Source: Oscillospiraceae bacterium
Lineage (GTDB): Bacteria; Bacillota; Clostridia; Oscillospirales; Acutalibacteraceae
Direction of reading: 5' to 3'
Assembly (NCBI GenBank): GCA_902791335.1
Contig: CADAVL010000010.1
Coordinates: forward strand, 1-26,669
DNA length: 26,669 nucleotides
The stretch's first letter is position 1. Each line of letters starts with the position of its first letter. This document shows positions 2,484 through 26,599 of the stretch, piece after piece. A model generated the notes under the pieces. That model saw only the letters and a program-made list of their open reading frames with translations. It was not told the origin of the DNA and ran no database searches. Both the position numbers and the translations under genes were made by a program.

Positions 2484-3983
2484 ATGAGAACCAACGGAAT
2501 TCTGTTACCGATATTTTCGCTTTCGTCGCCCTACGGCATCGGCACGCTCGGCAAGGAGGCTTTTGATTTTATCGACTTTTTAAAGGAAGCAGGCTGCAGC
2601 TATTGGCAGATCCTGCCGGTCGGCCCCACCGGCTTCGGCGATTCGCCCTATCAGTCGCCGTCGGCCTTTGCCGGCAACCCTTATTTTATTGATCTCAGGA
2701 TTTTGTGCCGCGAGGGTTGGCTGCAAGAGCAAGCGCTGCAAAGCATAGATTTCGGCAAAGACCCCCATAAAGTCGATTACGAAAAGCTTTATTTAAACCG
2801 CTTTGAAGTTTTGCGTGTTGGTGCCGATCGTTTTTTAGAAAACGCTCAGGAAAACACGCTTTCGGATTTTGAAAATTTTTGCGAAGAAAACAGCTTCTGG
2901 CTTGACAGCTATGCACTGTTCAGCGCACTGCACGACCGCTATCACTGCGCGTTTTACGACTGGCCAAAGGAATACCGCACCCGCGAAAAGGAGGCACTAA
3001 AGCGCGCCGAAGCGGAGCTTTCTTCGGATATTGCCTTTTATAAAATTTTGCAGTATTGGTTCTTTTCTCAGTGGCAGACGCTTCACGACTACGCCAAAAA
3101 GGCAGGCGTCGGCTTCATCGGCGACATGCCGATCTATGTGGCGCCCGACAGCGCCGATGTGTGGGCGCACCCGGAAATTTTTCTGCTCGATGAAAACGGT
3201 CGTCCGTCGTCCGTGGCCGGTTGCCCGCCCGACGCATTTTCGGCCGACGGTCAGCTGTGGGGCAATCCGCTTTATGACTGGTCGGCCTTAAAGGAAACCG
3301 ATTACGCCTGGTGGTGCGAAAGACTAAAGTTTGCAGGAAAACTTTACGACGTTGTACGCATTGATCATTTCAGAGCGTTCGACGCTTATTTCAGCATTCC
3401 GACAGGGGAGAAGACCGCCAAAAACGGTGTATGGAAGCAAGGCCCCGGCGAGGAATTCTTCCAAAGTGTGCATCAAAAGATCGGGAAACTTCACATTATC
3501 GCCGAGGATTTAGGACAGATCACCGATTCGGTTCGCGCACTGCTCAAAAGCGTCGGCTATCCCGGCATGGCAGTGCTGGAATTCGCTTTTGATCCTAACG
3601 GCGACAGCCGATATTTGCCGCACAATATTGAGAAAAACAGCGTGGTCTATACCGGCACGCACGACAATGACACCATCGAGGGGTATTTAAAAAATGCACC
3701 CAAAAGTGAGCGCCGCTTTTGCATAGATTATCTGCGTTTGAGCGCAAACGAGGGCTATAACTGGGGCATGATGCGCGCGGCCATGGCCACGGCGGCCGAC
3801 ACCTGTATTTTGCAAATGCAGGATTTTATGGGACTTTCCGAGGGCGCGCGAATCAACACCCCCGGCACGTCCGAGGGAAATTGGCAGTGGCGCATGGAGG
3901 GCAGTTGTATCAATTCCTGGCTTGCAGGCATTATCCGCCAAAACACGGCGCTTTACCGCAGACTCGGCAATCAAAAAGCTTAA
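2484..3983 (+). CDS. malQ: 4-alpha-glucanotransferase (amylomaltase, GH77)
   Basis: N-terminus GILLPIFSLSSPYGIGTLGKEAFDFIDFL...WQILPVGPT...GDSPYQSPSAFAGNPYFIDL is the classic MalQ signature. It is 499 aa with RBS AAAGGAAG. Confidence 0.9.
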   Translation: MRTNGILLPIFSLSSPYGIGTLGKEAFDFIDFLKEAGCSYWQILPVGPTGFGDSPYQSPSAFAGNPYFIDLRILCREGWLQEQALQSIDFGKDPHKVDYEKLYLNRFEVLRVGADRFLENAQENTLSDFENFCEENSFWLDSYALFSALHDRYHCAFYDWPKEYRTREKEALKRAEAELSSDIAFYKILQYWFFSQWQTLHDYAKKAGVGFIGDMPIYVAPDSADVWAHPEIFLLDENGRPSSVAGCPPDAFSADGQLWGNPLYDWSALKETDYAWWCERLKFAGKLYDVVRIDHFRAFDAYFSIPTGEKTAKNGVWKQGPGEEFFQSVHQKIGKLHIIAEDLGQITDSVRALLKSVGYPGMAVLEFAFDPNGDSRYLPHNIEKNSVVYTGTHDNDTIEGYLKNAPKSERRFCIDYLRLSANEGYNWGMMRAAMATAADTCILQMQDFMGLSEGARINTPGTSEGNWQWRMEGSCINSWLAGIIRQNTALYRRLGNQKA

Positions 3984-11670: not shown

Positions 11671-12774
11671 TTATTGCTGCCCCTTTAAAATACCGGTGAG
11701 CTGGCTCAAAACATCGGTGTTACCATTTAAATTGATGTTGCCGATATTGTCGCAGATGCGCTCAATGTATTCCAACTCCTTCAAACGATAAAGCGTTTTG
11801 TTTTCGTCCATTAATTTTGCGGTGTTCAATAAAGAACGGGTAGAGGCAACCTCCTCGCGGCGCGTGATCACGTTGGCCTGCGCGCGCTTTTCGGCCACCA
11901 GCACAGTGTTCATGATCTCGCGGATCTCACCGGGCAGAATAATATCCTTTACCCCTGCATCGGTAATTTCCACATAAAGCGCCTTTTCTTTCTCTTTGAG
12001 CTTTTGAAACACAAAATCCGACAGCTGGGATTTATTCATAAGAATTTCGTCCAGTTTGGCATTGCCCACGTATTCGCGCAATGCCAGCTGCGCTGCAATG
12101 TGCACCTGCTCCAAAAAATCGTCGATTTCCATGAAACATTTCACATAATCCGTCACGCGGTAATTGCAAACAAAATTGATCCGAATGGCAACCTTATCCT
12201 GCGTCAGGATTTCCTGACCGGTGATATTCATTCGTGTAAGCCTTGTATCCACAAAACCAACGGTGATCTTCGTGCCGTTATTCCAAAAATAATAAGTGCC
12301 GGCGTCAAGAATTTTTATGAATTTTTGATTAAAATAAAGCCGCGCTTTTCTGAATTGTGCAACCTCGATCTTTGTGTAAAAGTCGGTAGGAATTTCTGAA
12401 AAGATATATTCCGGCACGTCGTCCGACACTTCCGGAGACGAAATATCCAGAATTTTAAATGTGTGCTCCCGGGCGTCTGTCCAGAATGCGTATTTGCCGC
12501 GCGGCAGAATTGACGCAAAGCGGCCGTCCACAAAGTGCAGCGCCAGCTGGCAGTCGGCAACCTCAGTGACCGTTACATTCTGCGCAATTTCGGGATCGCG
12601 CAGCAAAACGTCCAGTGAGCAGCGCTCGGTGGAGATCGCCTCACCGGTATTCTGCACCTCGATTTCTTTTGCAAAGGAAGAACGGTATTTCCCGGGTCGG
12701 AGCATTTTTATGTATCTGCCGTTTTTAAAAAGTAAGCCTCTCTGATTTTCGTTGATAATAACTTTTTTCATCAT
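11671..12774 (-). CDS. SPFH/Band-7 (stomatin/flotillin-like) domain protein without an N-terminal TM segment, 367 aa
   Basis: INENQRGLLFKNGRY at the N-terminus and a C-terminal SPFH core (RINFVCNYRVTDYVK...AEKRAQANVITRREEVA). RBS GGAGGG precedes ATGATG. Confidence 0.75.
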   Translation of the reverse strand: MMKKVIINENQRGLLFKNGRYIKMLRPGKYRSSFAKEIEVQNTGEAISTERCSLDVLLRDPEIAQNVTVTEVADCQLALHFVDGRFASILPRGKYAFWTDAREHTFKILDISSPEVSDDVPEYIFSEIPTDFYTKIEVAQFRKARLYFNQKFIKILDAGTYYFWNNGTKITVGFVDTRLTRMNITGQEILTQDKVAIRINFVCNYRVTDYVKCFMEIDDFLEQVHIAAQLALREYVGNAKLDEILMNKSQLSDFVFQKLKEKEKALYVEITDAGVKDIILPGEIREIMNTVLVAEKRAQANVITRREEVASTRSLLNTAKLMDENKTLYRLKELEYIERICDNIGNINLNGNTDVLSQLTGILKGQQ

Positions 12775-13446: not shown

Positions 13447-14349
13447 TCACAGCTTTTGTTGCCTTTTTAAGCGGTCGATGATAAGATTTCGGAATTCCGG
13501 CGGTTCGGTCACCTCCACCATGGGACCAAAACTCAAAATTCGGATCACCAGCTCCGTTTCATCGAATTTGTTATATTTTATAAAAAGGGAATATTTCTTT
13601 TCGCCGATCTTTTCCACCCGCTTTTCAAAGTGTGCAAAATGGAGCAGCGTTCGCTCCAGTGCGTTGCGGTCGTCATACACCAGCAAGGTTACGGTTTCTT
13701 TGGATTCTATCGGGTTTGGCGCGGCCGGTATTTCGGCGGCGTCGCATTTGTCGCACGAGAGAATGCGCGCAAGATTGATAATGCTGCCGCAACGGCGGTC
13801 GGTGCCGATCAGGCGGAACTTATCGTCCTTTTCGGAGTATTCAAGGCTCTTTGGCGCCACCGTCATCGAAACGGTGCGACCCGAACGGTTCACCGCCCGA
13901 ATTTTCAAAAGTCGGTTTTGGGAGAGCGCGGACAGAATCGTTCTGAAATTTTTGATGTAAGCTTCATCGCAAAACGGGTCACCGTCGCTGTATTGGTCGT
14001 AGATGCAGTAATCCTCCATAGTAAACAGCGGCTCTACGTCCCGAAGCGCCTCAAAATCCACGTCGAAAAGCTTTACCTTTGGGTCTTGTGAGATCGCCTT
14101 TAACCATTGCTTTTGTACCGTCGAAAGCGGCATGGTCGGCGTATGTTTCAGCGGCGTTGTAAGGTTTTTATGCATAAGTTGCCATTTTTCGCTTTTCAGC
14201 GCCGGCAGAATGGTCAAAACACTTTCCGAAAAAGCGTTTTCAAGCACGATCTTTTCCAAAATCCTTTCGTTGCGGCGGCCCGAGAGCAGGCTTTCAATAA
14301 TTTTTGCCACCGTGTGATAGTAAGCGGAGTAAATCTCGTTGAATATCAT
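13447..14349 (-). CDS. WYL-domain transcriptional regulator (HTH-WYL-WCX architecture), 300 aa
   Basis: WYL-like core LKIRAVNRSGRTVSMTVAPKSLEYSEKDDKFRLIGTDRRCGSIINLARILS. WCX-like C-terminus VTLLVYDDRNALERTLLHFAHFEKRV...LVIRILSFGPMVEVTEPPEFRNLIIDRL. It overlaps the upstream gene by 4 bp. Confidence 0.7.
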   Translation of the reverse strand: MIFNEIYSAYYHTVAKIIESLLSGRRNERILEKIVLENAFSESVLTILPALKSEKWQLMHKNLTTPLKHTPTMPLSTVQKQWLKAISQDPKVKLFDVDFEALRDVEPLFTMEDYCIYDQYSDGDPFCDEAYIKNFRTILSALSQNRLLKIRAVNRSGRTVSMTVAPKSLEYSEKDDKFRLIGTDRRCGSIINLARILSCDKCDAAEIPAAPNPIESKETVTLLVYDDRNALERTLLHFAHFEKRVEKIGEKKYSLFIKYNKFDETELVIRILSFGPMVEVTEPPEFRNLIIDRLKRQQKL

Positions 14350-15614
14350 GTTTCCGCCTCCTCAATGCCATATAAACGATACATTCTTTTAAGATCGTCT
14401 TCAAACCGTTTTTGAACCGCTTTGTTGGAAAAGCGCAACGACGTAATCCTGCAAATAAAGGTTCTGACCCACGGGGTGATCTCGCCCGAATCATAAACGT
14501 CGGCAGAAAACCGATAGGTGTTCTCGTCAAGCTTTTTCACCGTGCCCACGCGTTTTTCGCGCTCCAGGCGGTTTACAATGTATTGCTCGTTTTTTTGCAC
14601 TTTGACCGTAAATTCAACGTGCTCGGTGCGCTTGCCTTTTTCGCCGCATTTTCCGCCGTATTTTCCTGCGGTAACACCCCACATTTTCTTTTTCATTTCG
14701 GAAAGTGTTGCCCTCAGCACGTCAAAATTTGGCGCAGGTTCTTCCAATTTTACATCCAAAAGATAATCGACCCGAAAGGACTTGATCGCATTAAGCTGAG
14801 GGCAGTAAGCCATCAGGTGCTGGCGCCCGTTTTGCACGCTTAAAAAGATTCTTAATGGAACCACCCGATTTTTTCGCAGCTCACTATTGTGACGGCTGAG
14901 ATTCAAAAACGAAACAAAGCGCTTTTGGTGCATTGCATCAAAAAGGGTAGCTAGAATATCGCTGTCAATGGCGGACGTGATATAGTGGTGTTTAAAGCTG
15001 AAACAATCTGCCGAAGTTTTTTCCTGTTGATCCAGCAAAAATGAGCCGATCACGCCGCAGGGCGCTGTTTCGGAAAAGAAATTCAGAACGTCGGTTGAAA
15101 GGGAAACAGACGGGTCGTTTGCCCTGCGGTAAAGCAGCTTTTTGCCGGACTTTTCGGCCGTGATCAACCCAAGCGAAATATATTCCTGCAGCTTTTTCCG
15201 AACGGTCGATTCGTCAAAGAGCATCGGTTTTCGGAACTTCGCCAAATAGCCGTCGATCTTTTCCAAAATCTCTGTCAGCGGCAAAGAAACGTCGGGCGAA
15301 AAAAGAAGATCCAGCAAAATAAAATGCAGGGTAATATCCTTATCGGTAAAGCTTTTGGATTTCAGCGCCTTAAAAAACGGATTGTGCGCGCACGCGCGGC
15401 TGTCTACCGAGAGAAACACGTTTTTGCCCTCAGGCGTGCGGACGTAGCCCATATAATTGCCAAGCCAGCTTTCAATCCTGCGGCGCTCGTCGTCATAGGA
15501 ACGGGCGCTTTTTTTGTTGTATTCGTCCCGACTTTTAAAGCCGTAAACATAAAATTCGCGCATATAGCTCCGAATTTTTTCAAAATTCTTGATCAGCTCA
15601 TTGTAAGACGACAC
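14346..15614 (-). CDS. WYL-domain regulator with an extended N-terminus (~100 aa extension, then wHTH, WYL, WCX), 422 aa
   Basis: wHTH-like LTEILEKIDGYLAKFRKPMLFDESTVRKKLQEYISLGLI. WYL core VVPLRIFLSVQNGRQHLMAYCPQLNAIKSFRVDYLLDV. WCX-like YRFSADVYDSGEITPWVRTFICRITSL. GTG start with RBS AAAGGAGGG. Confidence 0.65.
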   Translation of the reverse strand: MSSYNELIKNFEKIRSYMREFYVYGFKSRDEYNKKSARSYDDERRRIESWLGNYMGYVRTPEGKNVFLSVDSRACAHNPFFKALKSKSFTDKDITLHFILLDLLFSPDVSLPLTEILEKIDGYLAKFRKPMLFDESTVRKKLQEYISLGLITAEKSGKKLLYRRANDPSVSLSTDVLNFFSETAPCGVIGSFLLDQQEKTSADCFSFKHHYITSAIDSDILATLFDAMHQKRFVSFLNLSRHNSELRKNRVVPLRIFLSVQNGRQHLMAYCPQLNAIKSFRVDYLLDVKLEEPAPNFDVLRATLSEMKKKMWGVTAGKYGGKCGEKGKRTEHVEFTVKVQKNEQYIVNRLEREKRVGTVKKLDENTYRFSADVYDSGEITPWVRTFICRITSLRFSNKAVQKRFEDDLKRMYRLYGIEEAET

Positions 15615-16098: not shown

Positions 16099-16280
16099 CT
16101 AATTGGAAGGTGTAAAAGAACACACAAGACAGTAATCCCATTCAGCAAGCAGTTTCCTGTCCGTTGTGGCTAAATCATTGTATCCTGCAAGAACCGCCCT
16201 GTCCGTACAAACCGGGCATACTGTTCCTTTTACACGAACATTGATATTTCTTTCTTAGGCTTTGCAGCAGCTTTTGCCAT
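16099..16280 (-). pseudogene. Frameshifted N-terminal remnant of a DUF4379 zinc-ribbon-repeat protein, paralogous to 25355-26599
   Basis: RBS GGAGGT plus ATG gives MAKAAAKPKKEISMFV, then a stop. A +1 frame continues as NVRVKGTVCPVCTDRAVLAGYNDLATTDRKLLAEWDY. That matches the repeat unit of the intact paralog (VKGTSCPVCAERQVLRGHNDLATTDYMLCKEWDY). Confidence 0.55.
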
Positions 16281-16616
16281 TTGTATTACCTCCACATTCT
16301 ATTAGCTACTCGAATACAAGGTCGAATACAAGTATATCCTATCATTATAAGTGTCCAATAAAACGGACTTATGATTCGTCTTCGGGAAGAACATCCATAA
16401 AGATCAGCTGATTCTGGTATACTGCCGCAGCGGTAATCGGAGTAAGCAGGCATCTAAAAAAATGGTGAAATTGGGCTACACCAATATCATTGAGATCGGT
16501 GGAATTAATAGTTGGCCCGGTGAAACAGTCACCGGCGATAAGTGATAAAATCACAGAACAAGGAATGACTACCGGATATAATAAAGCTATAAAAAAGAAA
16601 ACAGGAGGACTTAAAT

Positions 16617-16922
16617 ATGTCTGCTATCAGTGTTAATAAAAATAATTTCAATCAAGAGGTTTTGAACTCGGACAAGCCCGTCCTGATGGATTTCTGGGCT
16701 CCCTGGTGTGGTCCTTGCCGCATGGTAGTTCCTCTGGTAGAGGAGATTGCCAAGGAGCGCTCCGATATCAAGGTTGTTAAAATTAATGTGGATGAGGAAC
16801 AGGAACTGGCTATGCAGTTCGGTGTGATGAGCATACCCACTCTGGTGGTTATGAAGAACGGAAAGATTGTCAATCAAGTCACCGGTGCCAGACCTAAGGC
16901 TCAGATTCTCGCCATGCTGTAA
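16617..16922 (+). CDS. trxA: Thioredoxin
   Basis: WAPWCGPCR active site, 101 aa, RBS AGGAGG. Confidence 0.9.
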
Positions 16923-16934
16923 GGAGGTGCAATG

Positions 16935-17255
16935 ATGAGCTTCTTCGATTTCCTGAAAGGCCCTGACATCAATCAGGGTGTCAAAGAGTATAGCGCCACG
17001 GATAGCGCAGTCCTGCTGGATGTTCGCACCCCCGACGAATACCGGCAGGGGCATATCCCCGGCAGTAAAAATGTTCCTTTGCAGTCCATTAGCAAAGTGG
17101 CCGGCATGATTGACAATAAATCTACCCCCATTTTTGTTCATTGTCTCAGCGGTGCAAGAAGCCGTCAGGCAACTGCTATTTTGCAGCAAATGGGTTATAC
17201 TAACGTGAAAAACATAGGCGGAATTTCCGCTTATACAGGAAAGGTAGAACGATAA
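16935..17255 (+). CDS. Single-domain rhodanese (sulfurtransferase)
   Basis: Active-site loop VHCLSGARS. ~106 aa. RBS AAGGAGG. ATG at 16932 or 16935. Confidence 0.85.
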   Translation: MSFFDFLKGPDINQGVKEYSATDSAVLLDVRTPDEYRQGHIPGSKNVPLQSISKVAGMIDNKSTPIFVHCLSGARSRQATAILQQMGYTNVKNIGGISAYTGKVER

Positions 17256-17256
17256 T

Positions 17257-18947
17257 ATGAAAGTTGTCATTGTAGGCGGTGTGGCAGGCGGTGCTACCGC
17301 TGCCGCCCGTATTCGCAGACTGAATGAGCAGGCAGAAATCGTAGTGTTTGAGCGGTCGGGATATATCTCCTATGCCAACTGTGGTCTGCCGTACTATATC
17401 GGTGATGTGATTACCGATCCCGAAGAACTGACCCTACAAACACCGGAAAGCTTCTTCTCCCGGTTCCTTGTAAACATGAAGGTGCGCCATGAGGTCACGG
17501 CTATCCATCCCGAAAAAAAGAAGTTACCGTGAAAAATCTGGAAACCGGTGAGGAGTTCGAGGAGAGCTATGACAAGCTGATTCTCTCTCCCGGAGCCAAG
17601 CCTACCCAGCCCCGGCTTCCCGGTATAGGAATCGGCAAGCTATTTACGTTGCGTACTGTGGAGGACACCTTCCGCATCAAAGACTACATTAACAAAAACC
17701 ATCCTAAATCCGCTGTACTGGCAGGCGGTGGCTTCATTGGATTGGAGCTGGCAGAGAACCTGCGAGAGTTGGGGATGGATGTCACCATTGTCCAGCGTCC
17801 AAAACAGCTTATGAATCCCTTTGATGCCGATATGGCTTCTTTCATCCATAATGAAATGCGTAGGGCTGGTGTAAAGCTGGCACTTGGTCATACCGTAGAA
17901 GGGTTTGAGGAAAGGGACGGCGGCGTGGATGTGCTGCTGAAAGAAGAACAGCCTCTCCATGCAGATATGGTAATCCTGGCCATTGGTGTTTCTCCCGAAA
18001 CCACCCTTGCAAAGGATGCCGGGTTGGAGCTGGGCATTAAAGGAAGTATTGTGGTCAATGACCGAATGGAAACCTCCATTTCCGACATCTATGCCGTGGG
18101 CGATGCGGTGCAGGTGAAGCACTTCGTCACCGGGAAGGATGCTCTGATCTCTTTGGCTGGCCCTGCCAATAAACAGGGACGAATCGCTGCGGACAACATC
18201 TGTGGCGGAGACAGCCATTATACCGGCTCCCAAGGCAGCAGTGTCATCAAGATCTTCGGCATGACTGCCGCTACTACCGGCGTAAATGAGACCAACGCCA
18301 GAAAAACAGGGCTGGATGTTGATACGGTTATCCTGTCGCCCATGAGCCATGCAGGTTACTACCCCGGCGGGAAAGTCATGACAATGAAGGTGGTCTTTGA
18401 AAAGGCGACTTATCGCCTGCTGGGTGCGCAGATCGTAGGCTATGAAGGTGTGGATAAGCGCATTGATGTGCTGGCCACCGCTATCCGGGCCGGAATGAAA
18501 GCCACGGAACTGAAGGATCTGGATCTGGCCTACGCACCGCCTTATTCTTCTGCGAAAGATCCGGTAAATATGGCTGGCTTTATGGTTGAGAATATCGCAA
18601 ACGGTGTTCTGAAACAATGGCATCTGGAAGATGCAGATCGCCTTCCTCGTGACGGAAGCGTAACTCTGTTGGACACCCGCACTGTGAAAGAATTCGCACA
18701 CGGACACATTGACGGCTTCTTTAACATCCCGGTGGACGAGCTGCGGGAGCGGCTGGGTGAGCTGGACAAGCGTAAGCCTGTCTACGTCATCTGTCAGAGC
18801 GGTCTGCGCAGCTACATTGCCTGTCGTATCCTGGCCGGAAACGGCTTTGACTGCTATAACTTCTCCGGCGGCTTTCGGTTCTATGATGCTGTGACCAATG
18901 ATCGCTGTCTCATTGAATCGGCTACGGCCTGCGGAATGGACAAATAA
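17257..18947 (+). CDS. cdr: CoA-disulfide / CoA-persulfide reductase with C-terminal rhodanese domain (CoADR-RHD). It is interrupted by a -1 frameshift in an A7 run at 17513-17519. This is either a pseudogene or a sequencing error.
   Basis: ORF 17257-17532 carries the FAD motif VVIVGGVAGGATAAARI and the redox Cys (SYANCGLPY). ORF 17529-18947 continues the pyridine-nucleotide-disulfide oxidoreductase fold and ends with a rhodanese domain (VYVICQSGLRS). Adding one A in the run restores IHPEKKEVTVKNLETGEEF. The combined length of ~563 aa is the expected size. Confidence 0.85.
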
Positions 18948-18949
18948 AC

Positions 18950-18997
18950 ATCCGCCGCATCTCTCCAACAATTTTGGTAGAGATGCGGCGGATTTTC
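18950..18997. terminator. Bidirectional intrinsic terminator with a 15-bp perfect stem, ATCCGCCGCATCTCT/AGAGATGCGGCGGAT
   Basis: The stem is followed by TTTCATCC on the plus strand. It lies between the convergent CoADR and ZIP genes. Confidence 0.7.
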
Positions 18998-19040
18998 ATC
19001 CTCTGACTGCAGCAAACATTTCAAACATCTTAATCACACT

Positions 19041-19796
19041 TTACCCCAAAAAGAAATTACTGACCAGCATCACACAGAATCCGGCCAGGAGCGCATAGGT
19101 TGCTCCGGTCTCGCTGCCGTGGGCATGGGTTTCGGGAATCATTTCATCACTGATGACATAGAGCATGGTTCCTCCCGCAAAGGCCAGAGCAAAGGGGAGA
19201 ATGGCCGAAGCAATGCTTACGGCCCAATATCCCAGAAGCGTACCGACGACTTCGATCAGCCCGGTCACCATGGCGCAGACAAAGGTTTTTACCGGGGATA
19301 CGCCTGCTGCCAGCATGGGCGCAATGATCACCATGCCTTCGGGGATGTTCTGCAGGGCGATACCGCAGGCGATCATCATCGCCTGCGCCGTGTCTTCACT
19401 TCCAAAGCTGACACCGGCGGCAATCCCCTCCGGCAGGTTATGGATCGCGATGGCTGTGACAAACAGCAATACCTTGTCAAGGTTGGCGCTGCGGTGTGTT
19501 TCCGTATCGGTTCCCACCAGCCTATGCAGGTGGGGAACCAGCTTATCAATGAGATTCAGGCACACCGCCCCAGTAAAGATCCCGATGATGGAAATGAGGA
19601 TCCCATGGGTTCCGCCATAATTGAGAGATGGCAGAATAAGTCCCAGTACAGCCGCAGACAGCATAACACCTGCCGCAAAGGACAGCACTATGTCGGAGAA
19701 TTTGTGGGAGATCTTCCGAAAGACAAAGCCAATGAGACTTCCAAAAATGGTCGCGCCCCCCACGCCGAGGGCGGTAAGCAATACGATTTTCATCAT
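19041..19796 (-). CDS. zupT: ZIP-family divalent metal (Zn/Fe) transporter, ZupT-like
   Basis: MMKIVLLTALGVGGATIFGSLIGFVF resembles the ZupT N-terminus. HNLPEGIAAGVSFG and ALQNIPEGMVI are the signature metal-binding helices. I set the start at ATGATG (19796/19793) rather than the track's upstream GTG. Confidence 0.8.
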   Translation of the reverse strand: MMKIVLLTALGVGGATIFGSLIGFVFRKISHKFSDIVLSFAAGVMLSAAVLGLILPSLNYGGTHGILISIIGIFTGAVCLNLIDKLVPHLHRLVGTDTETHRSANLDKVLLFVTAIAIHNLPEGIAAGVSFGSEDTAQAMMIACGIALQNIPEGMVIIAPMLAAGVSPVKTFVCAMVTGLIEVVGTLLGYWAVSIASAILPFALAFAGGTMLYVISDEMIPETHAHGSETGATYALLAGFCVMLVSNFFLG

Positions 19797-19812
19797 CAAC
19801 GATACAGGTCTT

Positions 19813-20472
19813 CTATTTATCAGAAAGTTCCTGCAATCTCCTTTCTTCACAAATCTCCACGATGCCCCGCGCCAGCTTCACCATACCCTCGTTCTGGAAA
19901 TAGCGAAGCATTCGGGTAACTACCTCACGGGCGGTGCCCATGTGGCCCGCAATGGTTTCATGGGTAATCTTGAGGGTGTTTGTTTCCTCTATGCTGCATT
20001 CCTCCAGCAGAAATTCTGCCAGCCTTTTATCAAAGCTTTTCCACATTATCTGCTCCATGAGCCACATAACCTCAGAAAAACGGGTAGCCATAATTTCGTT
20101 GGTAAAATTAGCTACCACAGCAGACTCTTTCATTAAGCGACCATAAGTGTCAGCAGAAATAACCCACATCGTGGTATCCTTCTGCGCCTCAATGGTGATC
20201 TCAAACTGAATGCTGTTCATCATACAGGAGGCGGAAAACAGGCAAATATCCCGATCAAACAAACGATAGAGGCTAATCTCCCGTCCTTCATCGGAAAGAA
20301 GATAGGCACGAAGCTGTCCGCTTTTTACCAGCAGAAGACCGGTACACTCCACAGTTCCGTTGTGAATCACAGTCCCCTTGTCCACTTTTCGTAAAACTGC
20401 ATTTTGCTCCAAAATCTGCTGCTGGGTCGGTGTCAGTTTGTTCCAAATTGGAAAATAGGATGAAAAATCCAT
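19813..20472 (-). CDS. Crp/Fnr-family transcriptional regulator (219 aa): cNMP-binding-like domain plus C-terminal HTH
   Basis: HTH region TLKITHETIAGHMGTAREVVTRMLRYFQNEGMV with an N-terminal beta-barrel. RBS AAGGAGG is followed 7 nt later by ATG at 20472. The rest of the 517-aa track ORF is antisense to the DUF134-NifX gene. Confidence 0.85.
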   Translation of the reverse strand: MDFSSYFPIWNKLTPTQQQILEQNAVLRKVDKGTVIHNGTVECTGLLLVKSGQLRAYLLSDEGREISLYRLFDRDICLFSASCMMNSIQFEITIEAQKDTTMWVISADTYGRLMKESAVVANFTNEIMATRFSEVMWLMEQIMWKSFDKRLAEFLLEECSIEETNTLKITHETIAGHMGTAREVVTRMLRYFQNEGMVKLARGIVEICEERRLQELSDK

Positions 20473-20516
20473 GGATACACCTCCTTGAATACACATAGTA
20501 TAAAATAATTTATGGC

Positions 20517-20565
20517 ATCTGTCAATAATTTCGTTGACATATAGGAAATGGAGATGTATAATGGT
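20517..20565. promoter_or_regulatory. Divergent back-to-back promoters. Plus strand: TTGACA-N17-TATAAT (20533-20561). Minus strand: TTGACA-N17-TATACT.
   Basis: The two -35 hexamers form TGTCAA-N8-TTGACA. They drive the Crp/Fnr gene leftward and the DUF134 gene rightward. Confidence 0.5.
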
Positions 20566-20607
20566 CATATAAATGACATATGCCGTAAATAATATGGTGG
20601 TGAATCT

Positions 20608-21378
20608 ATGCCAAGACCGAGAAAATGCAGAAAAGTTTGTTGTTTGCCGGATAATGATGGTTTTGTTCCGGTTCGTGGCGGCGAGGAACTGACTCCCATT
20701 GTCCTGAATGTGGATGAGTATGAATCCATTCGCCTGATTGACCGTGAAGGTTTTTCTCAGGAGCAATGCGGAGAATATATGCGTATTGCCAGAACAACGG
20801 TTCAGCAGATTTATGCAGCTGCCCGCAAAAAACTGGCCGATGCGCTGGTTGAGGGACTTCCTCTGCGAATCGAGGGAGGGGATTTTACACTCTGCAGCGG
20901 AAACAGCGCAGCCTACGGGTGCAGAAATTGCTATCAGCAAAAAATCCATCCGATGCACGAAAAACCGAAAGGAGATCATATTATGAGAATTGCAGTCACT
21001 TATGAAAACGGAGAAATCTTTCAGCACTTCGGTCACACCGAACAGTTTAAACTCTACGATGTGGAAGATGGAAAAATCATTTCGTCTGAGGTTGTGGATG
21101 CTGGCGGCAGCGGACATGGTGCACTGGCAGGCGTCCTGCGTGCACTGAAGGTGGATGCCCTGATCTGCGGCGGTATTGGCGGCGGTGCCCAGATGGCACT
21201 GAGCGATGTGGGTATCCGGCTTTATGGTGGTGTTTCCGGCAACGCTGATGCAGCAGCAGAAGCACTGGCAGCAGGCGAGCTGGACTTCAACCCCAATGTC
21301 CGGTGTGATCATCACGACCACCATGGGGAAGGTCACTCTTGCGGTTTTCACGGCTGCGGCCATCACTCCTGCGACTGA
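20608..21378 (+). CDS. Fusion of a DUF134 (UPF0251) putative DNA-binding domain with a NifX/NifB-like (dinitrogenase FeMo-cofactor family) domain, plus a C-terminal His/Cys-rich tail. 256 aa.
   Basis: MPRPRKCRKVCCLPDNDGFVP is the DUF134 signature. MRIAVTYENGEIFQHFGHTEQFKLYDV...ALICGGIGGGAQMAL is the NifX-like fold. The tail is CDHHDHHGEGHSCGFHGCGHHSCD. An internal AAAGGAGA-N7-ATG sits at the domain junction (~20975-20992). Confidence 0.75.
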   Translation: MPRPRKCRKVCCLPDNDGFVPVRGGEELTPIVLNVDEYESIRLIDREGFSQEQCGEYMRIARTTVQQIYAAARKKLADALVEGLPLRIEGGDFTLCSGNSAAYGCRNCYQQKIHPMHEKPKGDHIMRIAVTYENGEIFQHFGHTEQFKLYDVEDGKIISSEVVDAGGSGHGALAGVLRALKVDALICGGIGGGAQMALSDVGIRLYGGVSGNADAAAEALAAGELDFNPNVRCDHHDHHGEGHSCGFHGCGHHSCD

Positions 21379-21460
21379 AATAGGTGATTAAGTCACGGAA
21401 TATGTGTCGTGATTTGATAAAATATAGTTAAAGGAGGCGGTAAAACCTAAGTAATAAATC

Positions 21461-21489
21461 TTGATAAATTCACAGAATTGTGATATAAT
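21461..21489 (+). promoter_or_regulatory. Promoter TTGATA-N17-TATAAT whose spacer holds the palindrome TCACA-GAAT-TGTGA
   Basis: TTGATA 21461-21466, TCACA 21470-21474, TGTGA 21479-21483, TATAAT 21484-21489. The operator-like 5-4-5 palindrome overlaps the core promoter of the hydrogenase-rubrerythrin gene. Confidence 0.45.
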
Positions 21490-21556
21490 TATTGTGTATA
21501 AACTGGCAAACAAAAACAATTTCAGAATAAACAATTAAGAATAAAGGAGAAATGAA

Positions 21557-23620
21557 ATGGCAGAGCATTTACCACTATCTGTTCGGGTGCCGATTGAAGC
21601 GGATAACCCAAGTATTTGCCGCAAAGAAGAGCTTTGCATCAAGTGCGGACAATGCCGTGAGGTCTGCACGAATGAAATCGGTGTTCACGGTACATATTCC
21701 TTCGAGCAAACCGAAGGAAAGGCGATCTGTATCCACTGCGGACAGTGTGCAAACGTCTGTCCTACCGCAAGCATTACCGAGGTCTACGAATACCCGGACG
21801 TGAAGGCGGCTATCGCAGATCCCGATAAGATCGTTATCGTCAGCACGTCCCCCTCTGTGCGCGTTGCTCTCGGTGAAGAGTTTGGAATGGCGAAAGGAAG
21901 CTTCGTGCAGGGTAAAATGATCGCCCTTATGCGTGCTCTCGGTGCCGATTACGTCCTGGATACCAACTTTGCCGCAGACCTAACCATCGTTGAGGAAGCA
22001 AGCGAGCTTGTTCGTCGCATTACGACAGGAGATAAGCCCCTGCCTCAGTTTACAAGCTGCTGCCCTGCGTGGGTGAAGTTTGCTGAAACCTACTATCCCG
22101 AAATGCTCCCGCACGTATCAACTGCCAAGAGCCCCATCGGTATGCAAGGCCCCACTATTAAGACCTACTTCGCCCAGAAGATGGGTATTGATCCGAAGAA
22201 GATCGTTAACGTAGCACTTACCCCCTGTACTGCGAAGAAATTCGAGATCCGACGCGAGGAAATGAACGCCGCAGGCAAGAAGCTCGGTATCCCCGAAATG
22301 CGCGATATGGACTACGTTGTTACAACTCGCGAGCTTGCTCTTTGGGCAAAGGAAGCAAAGATCGACTTTGCTTCGCTTGAGGATAGCGATTACGACCGCT
22401 TTATGGGTGAAGCATCGGGTGCAGGCGTGATCTTCGGTAATACCGGAGGTGTTATGGAGGCAGCGCTTCGTACTGCATACTCCTATATCACGGGTGAGAT
22501 CCCCCCGGGCGCACTTCTTGACCTTAAGCCCGTTCGCGGATATGAGGGCATCAGAGAAGCAAGCCTTGACGTCAAGGGAACCACTGTAAACGTAGCTGTT
22601 GTTTATGGTACAGCCAACGCTCGCAAGCTCATCGAACTAATCAAGAGTGGCGAGAAGAACTACCACTTCGTTGAGGTGATGACCTGTCCCGGCGGATGCA
22701 TCGGCGGTGGCGGTCAGCCCCGTGATTTTGCGGCAGATGCTAATGCAAGCCGTAAGGCAAGAATCGAGAGCCTTTACAAGAGAGATGCCTCTTTGACTCT
22801 TCGTTCGAGCCACGAAAACCCTGAGATAAAGGAGCTTTACGAGGAATTTTACGGCAAACCGCTCAGTGAGCTTGCGGAAGAAATGCTCCATACTATGTAC
22901 ACTGATCGCTCAAGCGACATCAATAAAGAAATTATAAAAGGAGAAACAAAGAAAATGGAAAAATGGAAATGCACAGTCTGCGGTTACATTCACGAAGGCC
23001 CTATGACACCTGATTTTAAGTGCCCCATCTGCAAGCAGCCTGCCAACAAGTTTGTGAAGATTGAGGATGCTGCGGCTCCTGCAAAGAATCCCTATGCAGG
23101 TACCAAAACCGAGAAAAATCTGTGGGAAGCCTTTGCTGGTGAGAGTCAGGCCCGGAACAAGTACACCTACTTCGCCTCCGTCGCCAAGAAAGCCGGCTAC
23201 GAGCAGATCGCCGCGCTGTTCCTGCATACTGCACAGAACGAGATGGAGCACGCCAAGCTGTGGTTCAAAGCTCTGGGCGAGCTGGGTGATACTGCCGAGA
23301 ACCTGCTCCATGCTGCTGAAGGTGAGAACGCCGAGTGGACAGATATGTATGACCGCATGGCTCGTGAAGCTGATGAGGAGGGATTCCATGATCTGGCTGA
23401 ACAGTTCCGTGGCGTAGCTGCCATTGAGAAGATGCACGAGGAGCGCTACCGCAAGCTTTTGAGCAACGTGGAGGCTATGCAGGTGTTTGAGAAGAGCGGC
23501 GTTACCATCTGGGAGTGCCGTAACTGCGGACATATCGTAGTAGGAACCAAGGCTCCTGATATCTGCCCTGTCTGCAAACATCCTCAGGCATTCTTCGAAG
23601 TGCGTGCGGAAAACTATTGA
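21557..23620 (+). CDS. hydA: [FeFe]-hydrogenase catalytic subunit fused to rubredoxin, rubrerythrin and a C-terminal rubredoxin-like domain. 687 aa.
   Basis: Two ferredoxin-like Cys motifs ([23 protein letters not shown]). H-cluster motifs are [17 protein letters not shown] and [16 protein letters not shown]. Rubredoxin CTVCGY...CPICKQP follows, then rubrerythrin diiron helices ([11 protein letters not shown]...NEMEHAKLW...[11 protein letters not shown]...IEKMHEERY), then C-terminal CRNCGH...CPVCKHP. RBS AAAGGAGA. Confidence 0.85.
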
Positions 23621-23639
23621 TAAAACGGAGGAAATTAAA

Positions 23640-24017
23640 ATGAGTGCAAAGTTTTATATCTGCCGTCATTGCGGCAATCTGGTTGGTATGATTCACGACG
23701 CAGGTGTTCCCATGATGTGTTGTGGTCAGAAAATGGAGACTCTTGAGCCTAACACCGTAGAAGCCAGCGGCGAAAAGCATCTGCCTGCTGTTACTGTTGA
23801 AGATGGTGCAATCCATGTCAATGTGGGTTCTGTAGATCATCCTATGCTTCCGGAGCATTTCATCGAGTGGATCTATGTCCAGACCGAAAACGGTGGTCAG
23901 CGTAAGGTTTTGAAGCCCGGTGACGAACCCCATGTCACCTTCTTCCTGGGAGACGATAAAGCAGCAGCTGTCTATGCTTATTGCAATCTCCACGGCTTGT
24001 GGAAAACTGAAATTTAA
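23640..24017 (+). CDS. dfx: Desulfoferrodoxin (2Fe superoxide reductase)
   Basis: N-terminal desulforedoxin-like CRHCGN...MCCGQ. C-terminal SOR ligands EKHLP...H...CNLHGLW. RBS GGAGG is followed 8 nt later by ATG at 23640 (the track start at 23604 has no RBS). Confidence 0.85.
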   Translation: MSAKFYICRHCGNLVGMIHDAGVPMMCCGQKMETLEPNTVEASGEKHLPAVTVEDGAIHVNVGSVDHPMLPEHFIEWIYVQTENGGQRKVLKPGDEPHVTFFLGDDKAAAVYAYCNLHGLWKTEI

Positions 24018-24034
24018 CATGGAGGTTCTTGTAA

Positions 24035-24544
24035 ATGAACGAAAAAGTACATGCGCTTATCAATCAACAGATAAATAAGGAATTCTATTCCGCATACCTT
24101 TATCTCAATTTTTCAAACTATTTCGAGGAAGTCGGGCTTGACGGCTTTGCCAACTGGTATAAAATTCAGGCTCAGGAAGAGCGTGACCACGCCATGCTTT
24201 TCTATCAGTACCTGCAAAACGAAAACCAGAAGGTAACGCTTGAAGCCATTGACAAGCCTAATCTGAATGCAGCTTGCCATATGGATGTTTTGAAGGCGGG
24301 TCTTGAGCACGAAAAATATGTAACCTCGCTGATTAATGATATCTATAGTGAGGCTTACGAAGCAAGGGATTTCCGTACCATGCAGTTCCTCGATTGGTTT
24401 GTGAAAGAACAAGGTGAAGAAGAAACCAATGCAAATAATTTGATTTCCAAAATGGAACTCTTTGGCTCCGATCCCAAAAGCTTGTATATGCTCAATCAGG
24501 AATTGGCAGCACGAATTTACTCTGCTCCTTCTTTGGTTCTTTAA
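24035..24544 (+). CDS. ftn: Bacterial non-haem ferritin
   Basis: LINQQINKEFYSAYLYLNFSNYF...QAQEERDHAMLFYQYL ferroxidase-centre helices. 169 aa. RBS GGAGG. Confidence 0.9.
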   Translation: MNEKVHALINQQINKEFYSAYLYLNFSNYFEEVGLDGFANWYKIQAQEERDHAMLFYQYLQNENQKVTLEAIDKPNLNAACHMDVLKAGLEHEKYVTSLINDIYSEAYEARDFRTMQFLDWFVKEQGEEETNANNLISKMELFGSDPKSLYMLNQELAARIYSAPSLVL

Positions 24545-24582
24545 TCACTATAGCCTATAGATGATGGAAGTATAAAAGGCAG

Positions 24583-24619
24583 TATGCCGCCTGTCGGTTT
24601 TCCGGCAGGCGTTTTTTTA
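24583..24619 (+). terminator. Intrinsic terminator after ferritin: GCCGCCTGTCGG/CCGGCAGGC stem followed by GTTTTTTT
   Basis: Stem at 24585-24594 and 24602-24610 with one mismatch. U-tract at 24611-24618. Confidence 0.6.
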
Positions 24620-24692
24620 CAGAGGATGCCTATGATTTAAGATAATGCCAGCTTTATCTATTTACATCGCATAGATGAAGTAGAACTGAACA

Positions 24693-24935
24693 TTGAGGAT
24701 AAGGCAGCAATATATCCGTTATAATAAAAAGCAAAACAGTTACTCGTGGGAATATCAACCCAAAGGATATATGGAGTTACCCGCCAAAATCAAATGGGTC
24801 AAAGAACAGGGATTATGGCAACAGGTTCGTAAATATTATTTATACAAGAAGAACACAAACGATAACCCTAATAAACATTCAAGAACAATCTTTGCAGAAA
24901 CCATTCACGAAATATGGCAGAAGAATAAAGATTAA
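24693..24935 (+). CDS. Hypothetical Lys/Tyr-rich small ORF (80 aa) between two terminators. The coding status is doubtful.
   Basis: Open frame only. The start is non-ATG (TTG) and RBS support is weak. An internal ATG (MELPAKIKW) is preceded by AAAGGA with short spacing. I could not recognise a domain. Confidence 0.2.
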   Translation: MRIRQQYIRYNKKQNSYSWEYQPKGYMELPAKIKWVKEQGLWQQVRKYYLYKKNTNDNPNKHSRTIFAETIHEIWQKNKD

Positions 24936-25354: not shown

Positions 25355-26599
25355 TCACTGTTGTGTAATATCTTTCCATTTGAAAAAAGCCTTTTTGCAT
25401 TTCTCAATATCTTCTTGACTGTTTGAAAGGATATATATGTTTTTCTTTTGAAATATCTTTTTGATTTTATCCGCAAGTTCATAGTGATTTTTTGCTGAAA
25501 CCTCAAAATATGATATTCCGTTCATTTTACATAAGTGCTCTTTAACCGCCCTTTCATTTTCGTTTCCCGACCTTTTATCTATGCGCTCAATAACAGAAAA
25601 CATATCAGGGATATATGTTTCCACCGGCAGTCCGATTATATTATCGTCAAATGTGACTACTCTCATATTATACTGTTTTGCATATAACGAAACCAAAAGC
25701 TGAACAAGCAAGCTGTCAAATTCAGATTCGCAAACCGAGCAGGTTTTGCCTTCGTGAGTTCGCTCACATATTTTTGCATTCCAACTGTGGCCGTACCTGC
25801 ATAACCACCACGCACGATTATGTGAATTTCTCGAAATCTCGGTTGGTGACACTTTGTTTTTTTCGTAGTCCCATTCCTTACATAGCATATAATCTGTCGT
25901 GGCTAAATCATTATGTCCTCTCAATACTTGTCGTTCAGCGCAAACCGGACAAGAAGTCCCTTTTACACGGGCACTGATTACAGACTTCCACTCATTGCCA
26001 CACGCCTTACACTTCCACCAAACATTCTTCGTGGACTTTGCATTAACCTGATCAGGGGAAAGAGGAAAGTTATGTTCAGACCATTCTTCTGCAATCGTAG
26101 GATGCGTGGTGGCAAGATCATTAAATCCTTTTAGTAATTTAATACCGCTGCAATAAGGGCATTGACTGCCTCCGGCTCTCGTAGATATCAAAGTGTACCA
26201 TTCATGTCCGAGACTGCATTTCCACCAAACTTTTTTATTCTTAAATGCCGTAACCATATTCGGGTACAATGGATAATTTCGCTCCGACCATTCTGCGGCA
26301 AGCTTTGGAAATCGTGAAGCAAGATCGTTAAATCCGGGCAGAACAATGTTGTGTAAGCAATAAGGACAGCCTGTGCCATTCACTCGGCTCTTTACTTCCG
26401 CCGCCCATTCGTGACCGCACTTTCCGTGCCATAATACTTTCTTATGTGATCCGGCAGAAAGCTCTGTTGGTTTTATTTTATTCTTCGACGACCATTCCTC
26501 TGCTAACGAGGGATGTGTCGTATTTAGATCGTTGACTCCTGCTATGACTCTTGCGCCGGAGCATATAGGACATATCGCAATCGTTTTGCAGTTCGACAC
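25355..26599 (-). CDS. Multi-repeat zinc-ribbon (DUF4379-like) protein. It has four tandem ~55-aa treble-clef repeats and a C-terminal ~120-aa domain of unknown (possibly nuclease-like) fold. 414 aa.
   Basis: Repeating unit NDLATTHPxxAEEWSxxNxxxPxxVxxxSxKKVWWKCxxGHEWxxxISxRxxGxxCPYC. GTG start with RBS AAGGAGG. The region looks, by eye, low in GC relative to the first half of the window. Confidence 0.75.
   Translation of the reverse strand: MSNCKTIAICPICSGARVIAGVNDLNTTHPSLAEEWSSKNKIKPTELSAGSHKKVLWHGKCGHEWAAEVKSRVNGTGCPYCLHNIVLPGFNDLASRFPKLAAEWSERNYPLYPNMVTAFKNKKVWWKCSLGHEWYTLISTRAGGSQCPYCSGIKLLKGFNDLATTHPTIAEEWSEHNFPLSPDQVNAKSTKNVWWKCKACGNEWKSVISARVKGTSCPVCAERQVLRGHNDLATTDYMLCKEWDYEKNKVSPTEISRNSHNRAWWLCRYGHSWNAKICERTHEGKTCSVCESEFDSLLVQLLVSLYAKQYNMRVVTFDDNIIGLPVETYIPDMFSVIERIDKRSGNENERAVKEHLCKMNGISYFEVSAKNHYELADKIKKIFQKKNIYILSNSQEDIEKCKKAFFKWKDITQQ

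Follow-up and report, generated by a model that had tools for sequence, protein, structure and literature searches.

The window analysed here is the whole 26,669-nucleotide (nt) stretch of contig CADAVL010000010.1 from assembly GCA_902791335.1, a MEGAHIT metagenome contig, read on its forward strand. It contains three adjacent genes, hydR, dfx and ftn, which very probably form an oxidative-stress operon that is of recombinant origin, lies on an island, is served by two predicted promoters (P1 and P2) and begins with the gene for an H2-fuelled hydrogen peroxide (H2O2) reductase, HydR (Table 1). In the model proposed for this operon, H2 would be split at the H-cluster of HydR, and the electrons would travel through two [4Fe-4S] clusters and the rubredoxin domains, with their Fe(Cys)4 centres, to a di-iron site, at which H2O2 would be reduced to water with no participation of NAD(P)H. 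Desulfoferrodoxin (Dfx), the product of dfx, would convert superoxide to H2O2, which would then be a substrate for HydR, and the ferritin encoded by ftn (Ftn) would take up Fe2+ and thus limit Fenton chemistry; both of these roles are suggested by the families of the proteins and by their intact ligands. The H2-dependent H2O2 reductase activity of the window HydR itself we infer by homology.

By its domains and motifs, the window HydR is a member of the known class of [FeFe]-hydrogenase-rubrerythrin fusions designated "HydR". Domains were assigned with Pfam and NCBIfam profiles, and cofactor motifs were placed by regular expressions. Along the single open reading frame (ORF), Pfam recognizes two Fer4 domains (residues 22-74), the large hydrogenase domain Fe_hyd_lg_C (PF02906; residues 91-385, 318 bits), the small-subunit domain Fe_hyd_SSU (residues 398-451), a rubrerythrin (Rbr) domain (PF02915; residues 520-635) and RUBY_RBDX (PF21349; residues 652-681), and the two profile sets together place a rubredoxin (Rd)-like segment at about residues 467-501. 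The NCBIfam models TIGR02512 ([FeFe] hydrogenase group A; 470.8 against a cutoff of 405.95) and NF045767 (rubrerythrin; 267 against a cutoff of 200) are both passed. The original prediction, made from the letters of the DNA alone, that a hydrogenase, rubredoxin, rubrerythrin and second rubredoxin are fused in one polypeptide is thus borne out, and each of the domains that it expected Pfam and HMMER to find, namely the large and small hydrogenase domains, rubredoxin and rubrerythrin, was matched.

The cofactor sites of HydR are likewise complete. Eight F-cluster cysteines (C27/30/33/37 and C58/61/64/68) precede the H-domain, in which the L1 (TSCCPAW at 166), L2 (TPCTAKKFE at 222) and L3 (at 373) motifs with the four cysteine ligands are intact. 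Cysteines C472/475/489/492 and C654/657/670/673 would form the two rubredoxin centres, Rd1 and Rd2, and the di-iron ligands are E529, E562, H565, E590, E593, E624 and H627. Because HMMER alignments place the motifs in register with those of solved hydrogenases and reveal no loss of ligands, the earlier claim that all three H-cluster motifs are intact also stands.

Fusions of this kind are common: 592 confirmed genomic stretches carry one in the species representatives of GTDB, and there are more than 8000 database matches among the matches listed. As far as the citations in a later paper indicate, the class was predicted from genomes by Meyer (2007) and Calusinska (2010) (as cited in PMC11926857), in agreement with the earlier statement that such fusions had been noted in sequence surveys, and the Rd-Rbr-Rd sub-class (M2) was included in an expression screen in 2019 (Land et al.; PMC6984386). 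The enzyme from Clostridium perfringens, CperHydR (CPF_1076; UniProt A0A0H2YR94), which falls into sub-class M2 of the Meyer and Calusinska nomenclature, was subsequently purified, and it catalyses the reduction of H2O2 with H2 as the electron source (Taylor et al., JACS 2025; PMC11926857). It has a complete bias towards H2 uptake with essentially no H2 evolution, which has been attributed in part to a CpII-like L2 motif, TPCTAKKFE, with Thr for Met and Ala for Ser, and published AlphaFold 3 modelling of it points to a homodimer (PMC11926857). The L2 motif of the window HydR is letter for letter the one quoted for CperHydR. This motif is exact in 23 of 39 motif matches at fusion loci, and most of the others are close variants; judging from these matches, members of the fusion family typically have the Thr-for-Met variant. 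That H2 drives peroxide reduction is an idea that holds, biochemical work on the C. perfringens homologue having since demonstrated it, and the accompanying remark that the coupled activity had not been shown biochemically has been overtaken by the 2025 work (PMC11926857). Because the fusion class had been predicted, is common and is now characterized, the central mechanism of the original prediction is right but no longer novel.

The three genes are tightly ordered, as had been stated: the ATG of dfx lies 19 nt past the hydR stop and has a GGAGG ribosome-binding site, and ftn starts 17 nt past the dfx stop. Each of the three is preceded by a ribosome-binding site, and a scan of the sequence revealed no convincing terminator within hydR-dfx-ftn and one strong terminator after ftn. 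These features are consistent with a single transcription unit. In Dfx, the ligands of centre I (C8/C11/C27/C28) and of centre II (E45-K46-H47, H67, H73, C115 and H118) are present; PF06397 and PF01880 score above their gathering thresholds, and TIGR00320 (123.6) is under its cutoff of 146.9. Ftn matches PF00210 with 124 bits, its NCBIfam equivalogs being under cutoff, and the residues of its ferroxidase centre, located by inspection, are E16, E48/E49, H52, E93 and the Q126 region.

Comparison with other loci (the labels L001-L093 denote comparison loci and contigs fetched for the analysis) indicates that hydR of the window is the product of one recombination inside a horizontally spreading oxidative-stress island, in which the promoter-plus-HydA module of an Allofournierella-type hydR would have taken the place of a rubredoxin gene and of the N-terminal part, a ferredoxin domain, of an Fdx-Rd-Rbr gene. 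The HydA half of the protein (residues 1-455) is 98% identical to that of Allofournierella-type loci (L001, L002, L004 and L040), in which the Rd-Rbr half is only 82-84% identical to that of the window. The Rd-Rbr half of the window is 97-98% identical to HydA-less loci of Fusibacillus, Faecalicatena, Candidatus Merdisoma, Blautia, Oliverpabstia and one Oscillospiraceae metagenome-assembled genome (MAG), and 96% and 94% identical to HydA-less genes of Mogibacterium and Oribacterium, respectively. At the nucleotide level, the promoter and HydA part (21448-22947) has 98.7% identity to Allofournierella-type hydR, and the flanking segments 16397-21449 and 22948-24700 have 95-97% identity to HydA-less island loci (95-98% for the flanks overall, Rd-Rbr-Rd, dfx and ftn included). 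Scored per 100 nt, 21448-22947 is 96-100% identical to L002, after which identity drops to 71-83%, and the sequence up to 21457 and from 22936 onwards is mostly 94-100% identical to the island locus L049, with a few intervals at 84-90%. In L049, the DUF134-NifX gene is separated from the Rd-Rbr module by a gene for a 209-residue protein with a rubredoxin domain at each end and then, in place of HydA, by the N-terminus of a 382-residue Fer4(2x[4Fe-4S])-linker-Rd-Rbr-Rd protein. The left junction joins sequence just past the T-run of an upstream terminator in the Allofournierella-type locus, and because of this position the HydA module would have brought its own promoter.

All recombinants have identical junctions, and the 687-residue gene with dfx and ftn recurs, identical or nearly so, on contigs from independent samples and assemblers. 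The recombinant variants differ mostly at synonymous sites, with ratios of nonsynonymous to synonymous substitution rates (dN/dS) of 0.07-0.17, so that recombinant hydR is under purifying selection. The MEGAHIT origin of the contig and the sharpness of the identity breakpoints might suggest that the mosaic gene is a chimera of metagenome assembly. This is extremely improbable, because at least 15 contigs with varied flanks repeat the same junctions, the contigs coming from different samples and studies and from several kinds of assembly (MEGAHIT, Logan and scaffolded METAG assemblies), because the variants have diverged at synonymous sites (dN/dS about 0.1), and because the parents, with 71-83% identity near the right junction, are too dissimilar to share a 141-mer. 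The recombinant occurs on independent contigs and has diverged under purifying selection, and a chimera was therefore rejected. As a separate observation, in L031 (6001-9213) a Fer4-Rd-Rbr-Rd gene comes directly after a gene in which HydA is joined to a divergent Rbr-like module (26% identity); such adjacency of the two gene types could supply the substrate for a recombination of the kind seen in the window.

The island spans about 8.6 kb (approximately 16132-24700) and comprises genes for thioredoxin (trx), rhodanese, a CoADR/NADH-oxidase-like flavoprotein whose C-terminal domain is a rhodanese, a ZIP transporter, a CRP/FNR-family regulator and the DUF134-NifX protein, followed by the operon of Rbr or of hydR. 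Isolates and MAGs from several Clostridia families share the island at 95-98% identity. In L087 it adjoins genes for a tyrosine integrase, an excisionase-like helix-turn-helix protein and a relaxase of the MobA/MobL type, and 115-bp direct repeats (3389-3503 and 12544-12658), with 96% identity to the copy in the window, lie on both sides of it; in L083, genes for a relaxase and for serine recombinases lie downstream of hydR. At its left edge in the window (16132-16246) the island has a minus-strand fragment of a gene for a DUF4379 (treble-clef zinc-finger repeat) protein; to the right of the island, such a gene is present in intact form (25355-26599). The fragment and the 115-bp repeats may be remnants of attachment sites.

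The association of the hydrogenase fusion with dfx and ferritin, on which the original prediction had built a common H2-powered detoxification pathway, is not a trait of the family. In other species, iterated hidden Markov model searches of all six-frame ORFs covered 32 full-length hydR loci and found neither dfx nor ftn at any of them. Beside the ferredoxin-type Rbr, dfx is present in 11 island-type loci and ftn in four. Among the island and recombinant variants are hydR alone (L082), hydR with ferritin (L085), hydR with an AhpC-like gene (L083), Rbr alone (L051 and L052), Rbr with dfx and Rbr with ftn. Because none of the 32 loci has the linkage and because dfx and ftn come and go, the hydR-dfx-ftn arrangement would have been inherited from the island rather than selected around the hydrogenase.

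How the three products cooperate can be read in more than one way. There is about an even chance that the genes are co-located stress cargo without mutual electron transfer, HydR acting on H2O2 alone and Dfx being reduced by a separate rubredoxin with NROR, or by another donor, encoded elsewhere. Such independence would agree with the behaviour of dfx and ftn as optional cassettes in the variants and with the fact that dfx came with the ferredoxin-type Rbr and not with hydR. Moreover, the recombination removed the free-standing Rd...Rd protein of the island, the most obvious donor to Dfx, which also speaks against direct transfer from HydR to Dfx. On the other side, HydR has two rubredoxin centres, rubredoxin is the established electron donor to desulfoferrodoxin (2Fe superoxide reductase, SOR), and the dfx-bearing recombinant persists under purifying selection. 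There is also a precedent for H2-driven rubredoxin reduction that feeds antioxidant enzymes, in which the H2-dependent reduction of rubredoxin is performed by a [NiFe]-type enzyme, FrhAGB of Thermococcus onnurineus (PMC13333549). Direct reduction of Dfx by the rubredoxin centres of HydR is speculative, and it seems doubtful that these centres also serve Dfx and thereby give HydEFG-bearing gut anaerobes a complete NAD(P)H-independent, H2-fuelled path from superoxide by way of H2O2 to water.

An unlikely alternative role for the Rd-Rbr module is mainly to shield the fused hydrogenase from reactive oxygen species or to act as an H2:O2 oxidoreductase in the manner of reverse rubrerythrins. Clostridial rubrerythrin-type proteins reduce O2 as well as H2O2, which would fit the latter role, and the sensitivity of H-clusters to reactive oxygen species would fit the former, as would the finding that CperHydR is still O2-sensitive (PMC11926857). 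However, CperHydR turns over H2O2 catalytically with H2 (PMC11926857) and does not evolve H2, so that there would be no productive hydrogenase activity to protect, and in other species hydR is part of PerR-type operons that have the PerR box in exact form, as would be expected of a stress-response enzyme. The reading of hydR-dfx-ftn as an oxidative-stress operon headed by an H2-fuelled peroxide reductase is weakened by two observations. The O2 sensitivity of CperHydR makes the physiological effectiveness of such an enzyme uncertain, and a profile search found no HydE, HydF or HydG maturase genes within the 26.7-kb window.

Upstream of the operon, two predicted promoters lie in tandem. Past the stop of the DUF134-NifX gene, comparison of diverged island loci reveals a conserved dyad, GTGAY-N3-RTCAC, usually followed by rGAA, and the candidate operator of the window lies at this conserved position. 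Copies of the motif GTGAYNNNRTCAC also precede the trx-rhodanese-CoADR operon, and by this shared motif these sites and the site upstream of hydR are assigned to the same regulon. Of 73 distinct contexts scored by orientation (about 36 sites, the motif being palindromic), 20 have an extended -10 element, TGnTAnnnT, that starts 18-19 nt downstream (in one case 20 nt), against a background of 0.6%, and no -35 hexamer is present at the dyad-associated island promoters in the fetched loci. Because the centre of the dyad is at about -40/-41 and there is no -35 hexamer, the architecture would be that of a class II activator. The CRP/FNR protein of the island, encoded by an adjacent gene, is the obvious candidate regulator of the GTGAYNNNRTCAC sites; the 15-bp (N5) geometry of the dyad is atypical for the CRP/FNR family, and the DUF134-NifX protein is an alternative candidate. 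A literature search on CRP/FNR regulators of rubrerythrin operons found nothing relevant, and 20400-21600, including the divergent intergenic region between crp and the DUF134 gene, contains only weak, imperfect inverted repeats. Since P1 precedes the left junction and no terminator intervenes before hydR, tandem promoters are most likely, and the operon probably has two: P1, which would depend on the island activator, and the near-consensus P2, imported with hydA.

The promoter TTGATA-17-TATAAT with the palindrome TCACAGAATTGTGA (TCACA-N4-TGTGA) in its spacer at 21470-21483, which the original prediction had described as operator-like, is present as stated; the operator role is not upheld, the palindrome being single-copy and not conserved beyond near-identical promoters, and the candidate operator at 21384-21396 has far stronger support. 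As a perfect 5+5 inverted repeat between the -35 and -10 elements, with a left arm and upstream sequence (TTGATAAATTCACAGAA) that loosely resemble the island consensus GTGAYNNNRTCACrGAA, it might be a genuine repressor operator of the operon, for which the chances are small. It occurs once in the window, is conserved only where the whole promoter is nearly identical (L002 and the recombinants) and is missing from all other hydR promoters; in L004, one of two independent relatives, one arm is mutated to TCATA. In addition, the TGTGA arm supplies the extended -10 TG, and with respect to the island motif there are two mismatches and a spacing to the -10 element of 7 nt instead of 18-19.

A different form of control is found in other species. 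A Fur-family, PerR-like gene lies about 400-1200 nt upstream of hydR in 9 of the 32 loci (L014, L017, L021, L022, L023, L031, L041, L006 and L012); its best NCBIfam matches are PerR models, below cutoff. The exact PerR box TTAGAATNATTCTAA occurs in eight other-species loci just downstream of the -10 element of the perR-like gene, a position that suggests an autoregulated perR-hydR peroxide-stress operon. The presence of the box and of the PerR-like gene at hydR thus lends independent support to an oxidative-stress role of the family. Near the window operon there is no match to the box within three mismatches, and the window contains no Fur-family gene; control of this operon by PerR was rejected because the box is absent.

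Table 1. Coordinates of the features discussed, numbered from the first letter of the window; a slash marks a recombination junction.
Feature	Position	Strand	Description
Island operator motif copies, GTGAYNNNRTCAC	16520-16554	+	16520-16532 with one mismatch, 16542-16554 exact; upstream of the trx-rhodanese-CoADR operon
CRP/FNR-family regulator	19813-20472	-	219 aa; Pfam cNMP_binding and HTH_Crp_2; co-occurs with the motif in island loci
DUF134-NifX gene	20608-21378	+	DUF134 (sigma-70 region-4-like helix-turn-helix) and NifX/NifB-like FeMo-cofactor-binding domain; His/Cys-rich tail CDHHDHHGEGHSCGFHGCGHHSCD
Conserved operator (candidate)	21384-21396	+	GTGATTAAGTCAC, then GGAAT; centred at about -40/-41 of P1; position conserved across diverged loci
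P1 extended -10	21415-21423	+	TGATAAAAT; no -35 hexamer
Left recombination junction	21448-21449		CCTA/AGTAATAA; exactly at the ATG of the rubredoxin gene in other island loci
P2 promoter (predicted)	21461-21489	+	TTGATA-17-TATAAT; extended -10 TG; 11/12 matches; imported with the HydA module
hydR	21557-23620	+	687 aa; 2x[4Fe-4S], [FeFe]-hydrogenase H-domain, small-subunit-like, rubredoxin, rubrerythrin, rubredoxin
Right recombination junction	22945-22948		GGAGAAAC/AAAGAAAATGG; linker just before Rd1, about residue 464
dfx	23640-24017	+	125 aa; desulfoferrodoxin (class I, 2Fe superoxide reductase), both metal centres intact
ftn	24035-24544	+	169 aa; non-haem ferritin
Intrinsic terminator	24588-24618	+	10-bp stem (24588-24611), 8 GC pairs, T7 tail; downstream of ftn

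Several further observations concern the island and its surroundings. The DUF134-NifX gene is kept directly upstream of Rd-Rbr operons even in loci that are only 56-70% identical, and its product may be a metal- or cluster-sensing regulator or a chaperone. An ORF of 517 codons on the minus strand (19813-21366) runs antisense through the whole of this gene, and in L081 and L093 the metagenome gene caller reports a CRP-like protein of 512 residues and omits DUF134-NifX; the 512-residue annotation is an artefact, the real crp gene being the one listed in Table 1. The flavoprotein gene (17257-18947) is split into ORFs of 91 and 472 residues by a frameshift near 17529-17532; the split is repeated in the independent sample L093, L087 and L088 have the intact form of 564 residues, and a real pseudogene or frameshift in the lineage of the window is likely. 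Downstream of the Rbr operon, GTGAYNNNRTCAC is found at the same -10 spacing before thioredoxin/thioredoxin-reductase-like and other genes (L084 3348-3360, L090 3323-3335, L047 4980-4992, L049 10141-10153, L053 8491-8503, L055 2302-2314 and L066 4980-4992), which suggests a wider redox regulon. Directly to the left of the island, on the minus strand (13447-15614), a WYL-domain gene is paired with a WCX-like gene; such pairs are often regulators tied to defence or mobile elements.

H2 is abundant in the gut, and a peroxide-removing enzyme that draws on H2 in place of NAD(P)H could therefore help strict anaerobes to survive near the oxygenated mucosa. Because the enzyme class is now characterized, the fusion in itself brings nothing new; what is added, as an incremental advance, is the context of the operon, its recombinant origin, its mobility and the conserved operator. 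The loci constitute a natural experiment in which one Rd-Rbr-dfx-ftn operon is found with two kinds of electron-input module, ferredoxin-type and hydrogenase-type, and their nucleotide identity of 95-98% indicates that such oxidative-stress modules are exchanged among the families of gut Clostridia. The conserved, positionally fixed candidate operator would define a regulon that includes trx/CoADR, Rbr/dfx/ftn and a thioredoxin-reductase-like gene. If HydR does reduce Dfx, the exchange of input modules would show that natural rubrerythrin systems can swap one electron-input module for another and that traits of aerotolerance are passed on horizontally within gut microbiomes.

Among known systems, the window HydR most directly invites comparison with CperHydR, to which it is likened by domain order (2x[4Fe-4S], H-domain, Rd, Rbr, Rd) and motifs: both are cytoplasmic single polypeptides with the same cofactor-binding motifs and an identical L2. 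Unlike CperHydR, it belongs to a different lineage with a gut Oscillospiraceae-type HydA, is a recent recombinant whose Rd-Rbr-Rd half derives from a ferredoxin-fused rubrerythrin, and is encoded on a horizontally spreading island with predicted co-transcription of dfx and ftn. The island-type Fer4-Rd-Rbr-Rd proteins (L049 6055-7835 of Candidatus Merdisoma, and those of Blautia, Oliverpabstia, Faecalicatena, Mogibacterium and Oribacterium) share the Rd-Rbr-Rd module at 98% amino acid identity, and their loci share the upstream ZIP, CRP/FNR and DUF134-NifX genes, the operator and P1, and dfx-ftn downstream. Their electron input differs, consisting of a 2x[4Fe-4S] ferredoxin-like domain and a separate two-rubredoxin protein with no hydrogenase, and their reductant is presumably a reduced ferredoxin or an NAD(P)H-linked system and not H2. 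The perR-hydR operons of other Oscillospiraceae and Lachnospiraceae encode the same fusion enzyme in an oxidative-stress regulatory context, but have a Fur-family gene and a PerR box where the window has a CRP/FNR-associated class II site. A chain of NROR, rubredoxin and desulfoferrodoxin or rubrerythrin performs detoxification in Clostridium acetobutylicum and Desulfovibrio. This chain and the FrhAGB system resemble that of the window in the rubredoxin-centred delivery of electrons to SOR and rubrerythrin and, in the Thermococcus case, in the use of H2 as the source; however, they employ separate proteins with NAD(P)H or a [NiFe]-type hydrogenase, whereas in the window the hydrogenase, rubredoxins and peroxidase are united in one polypeptide.

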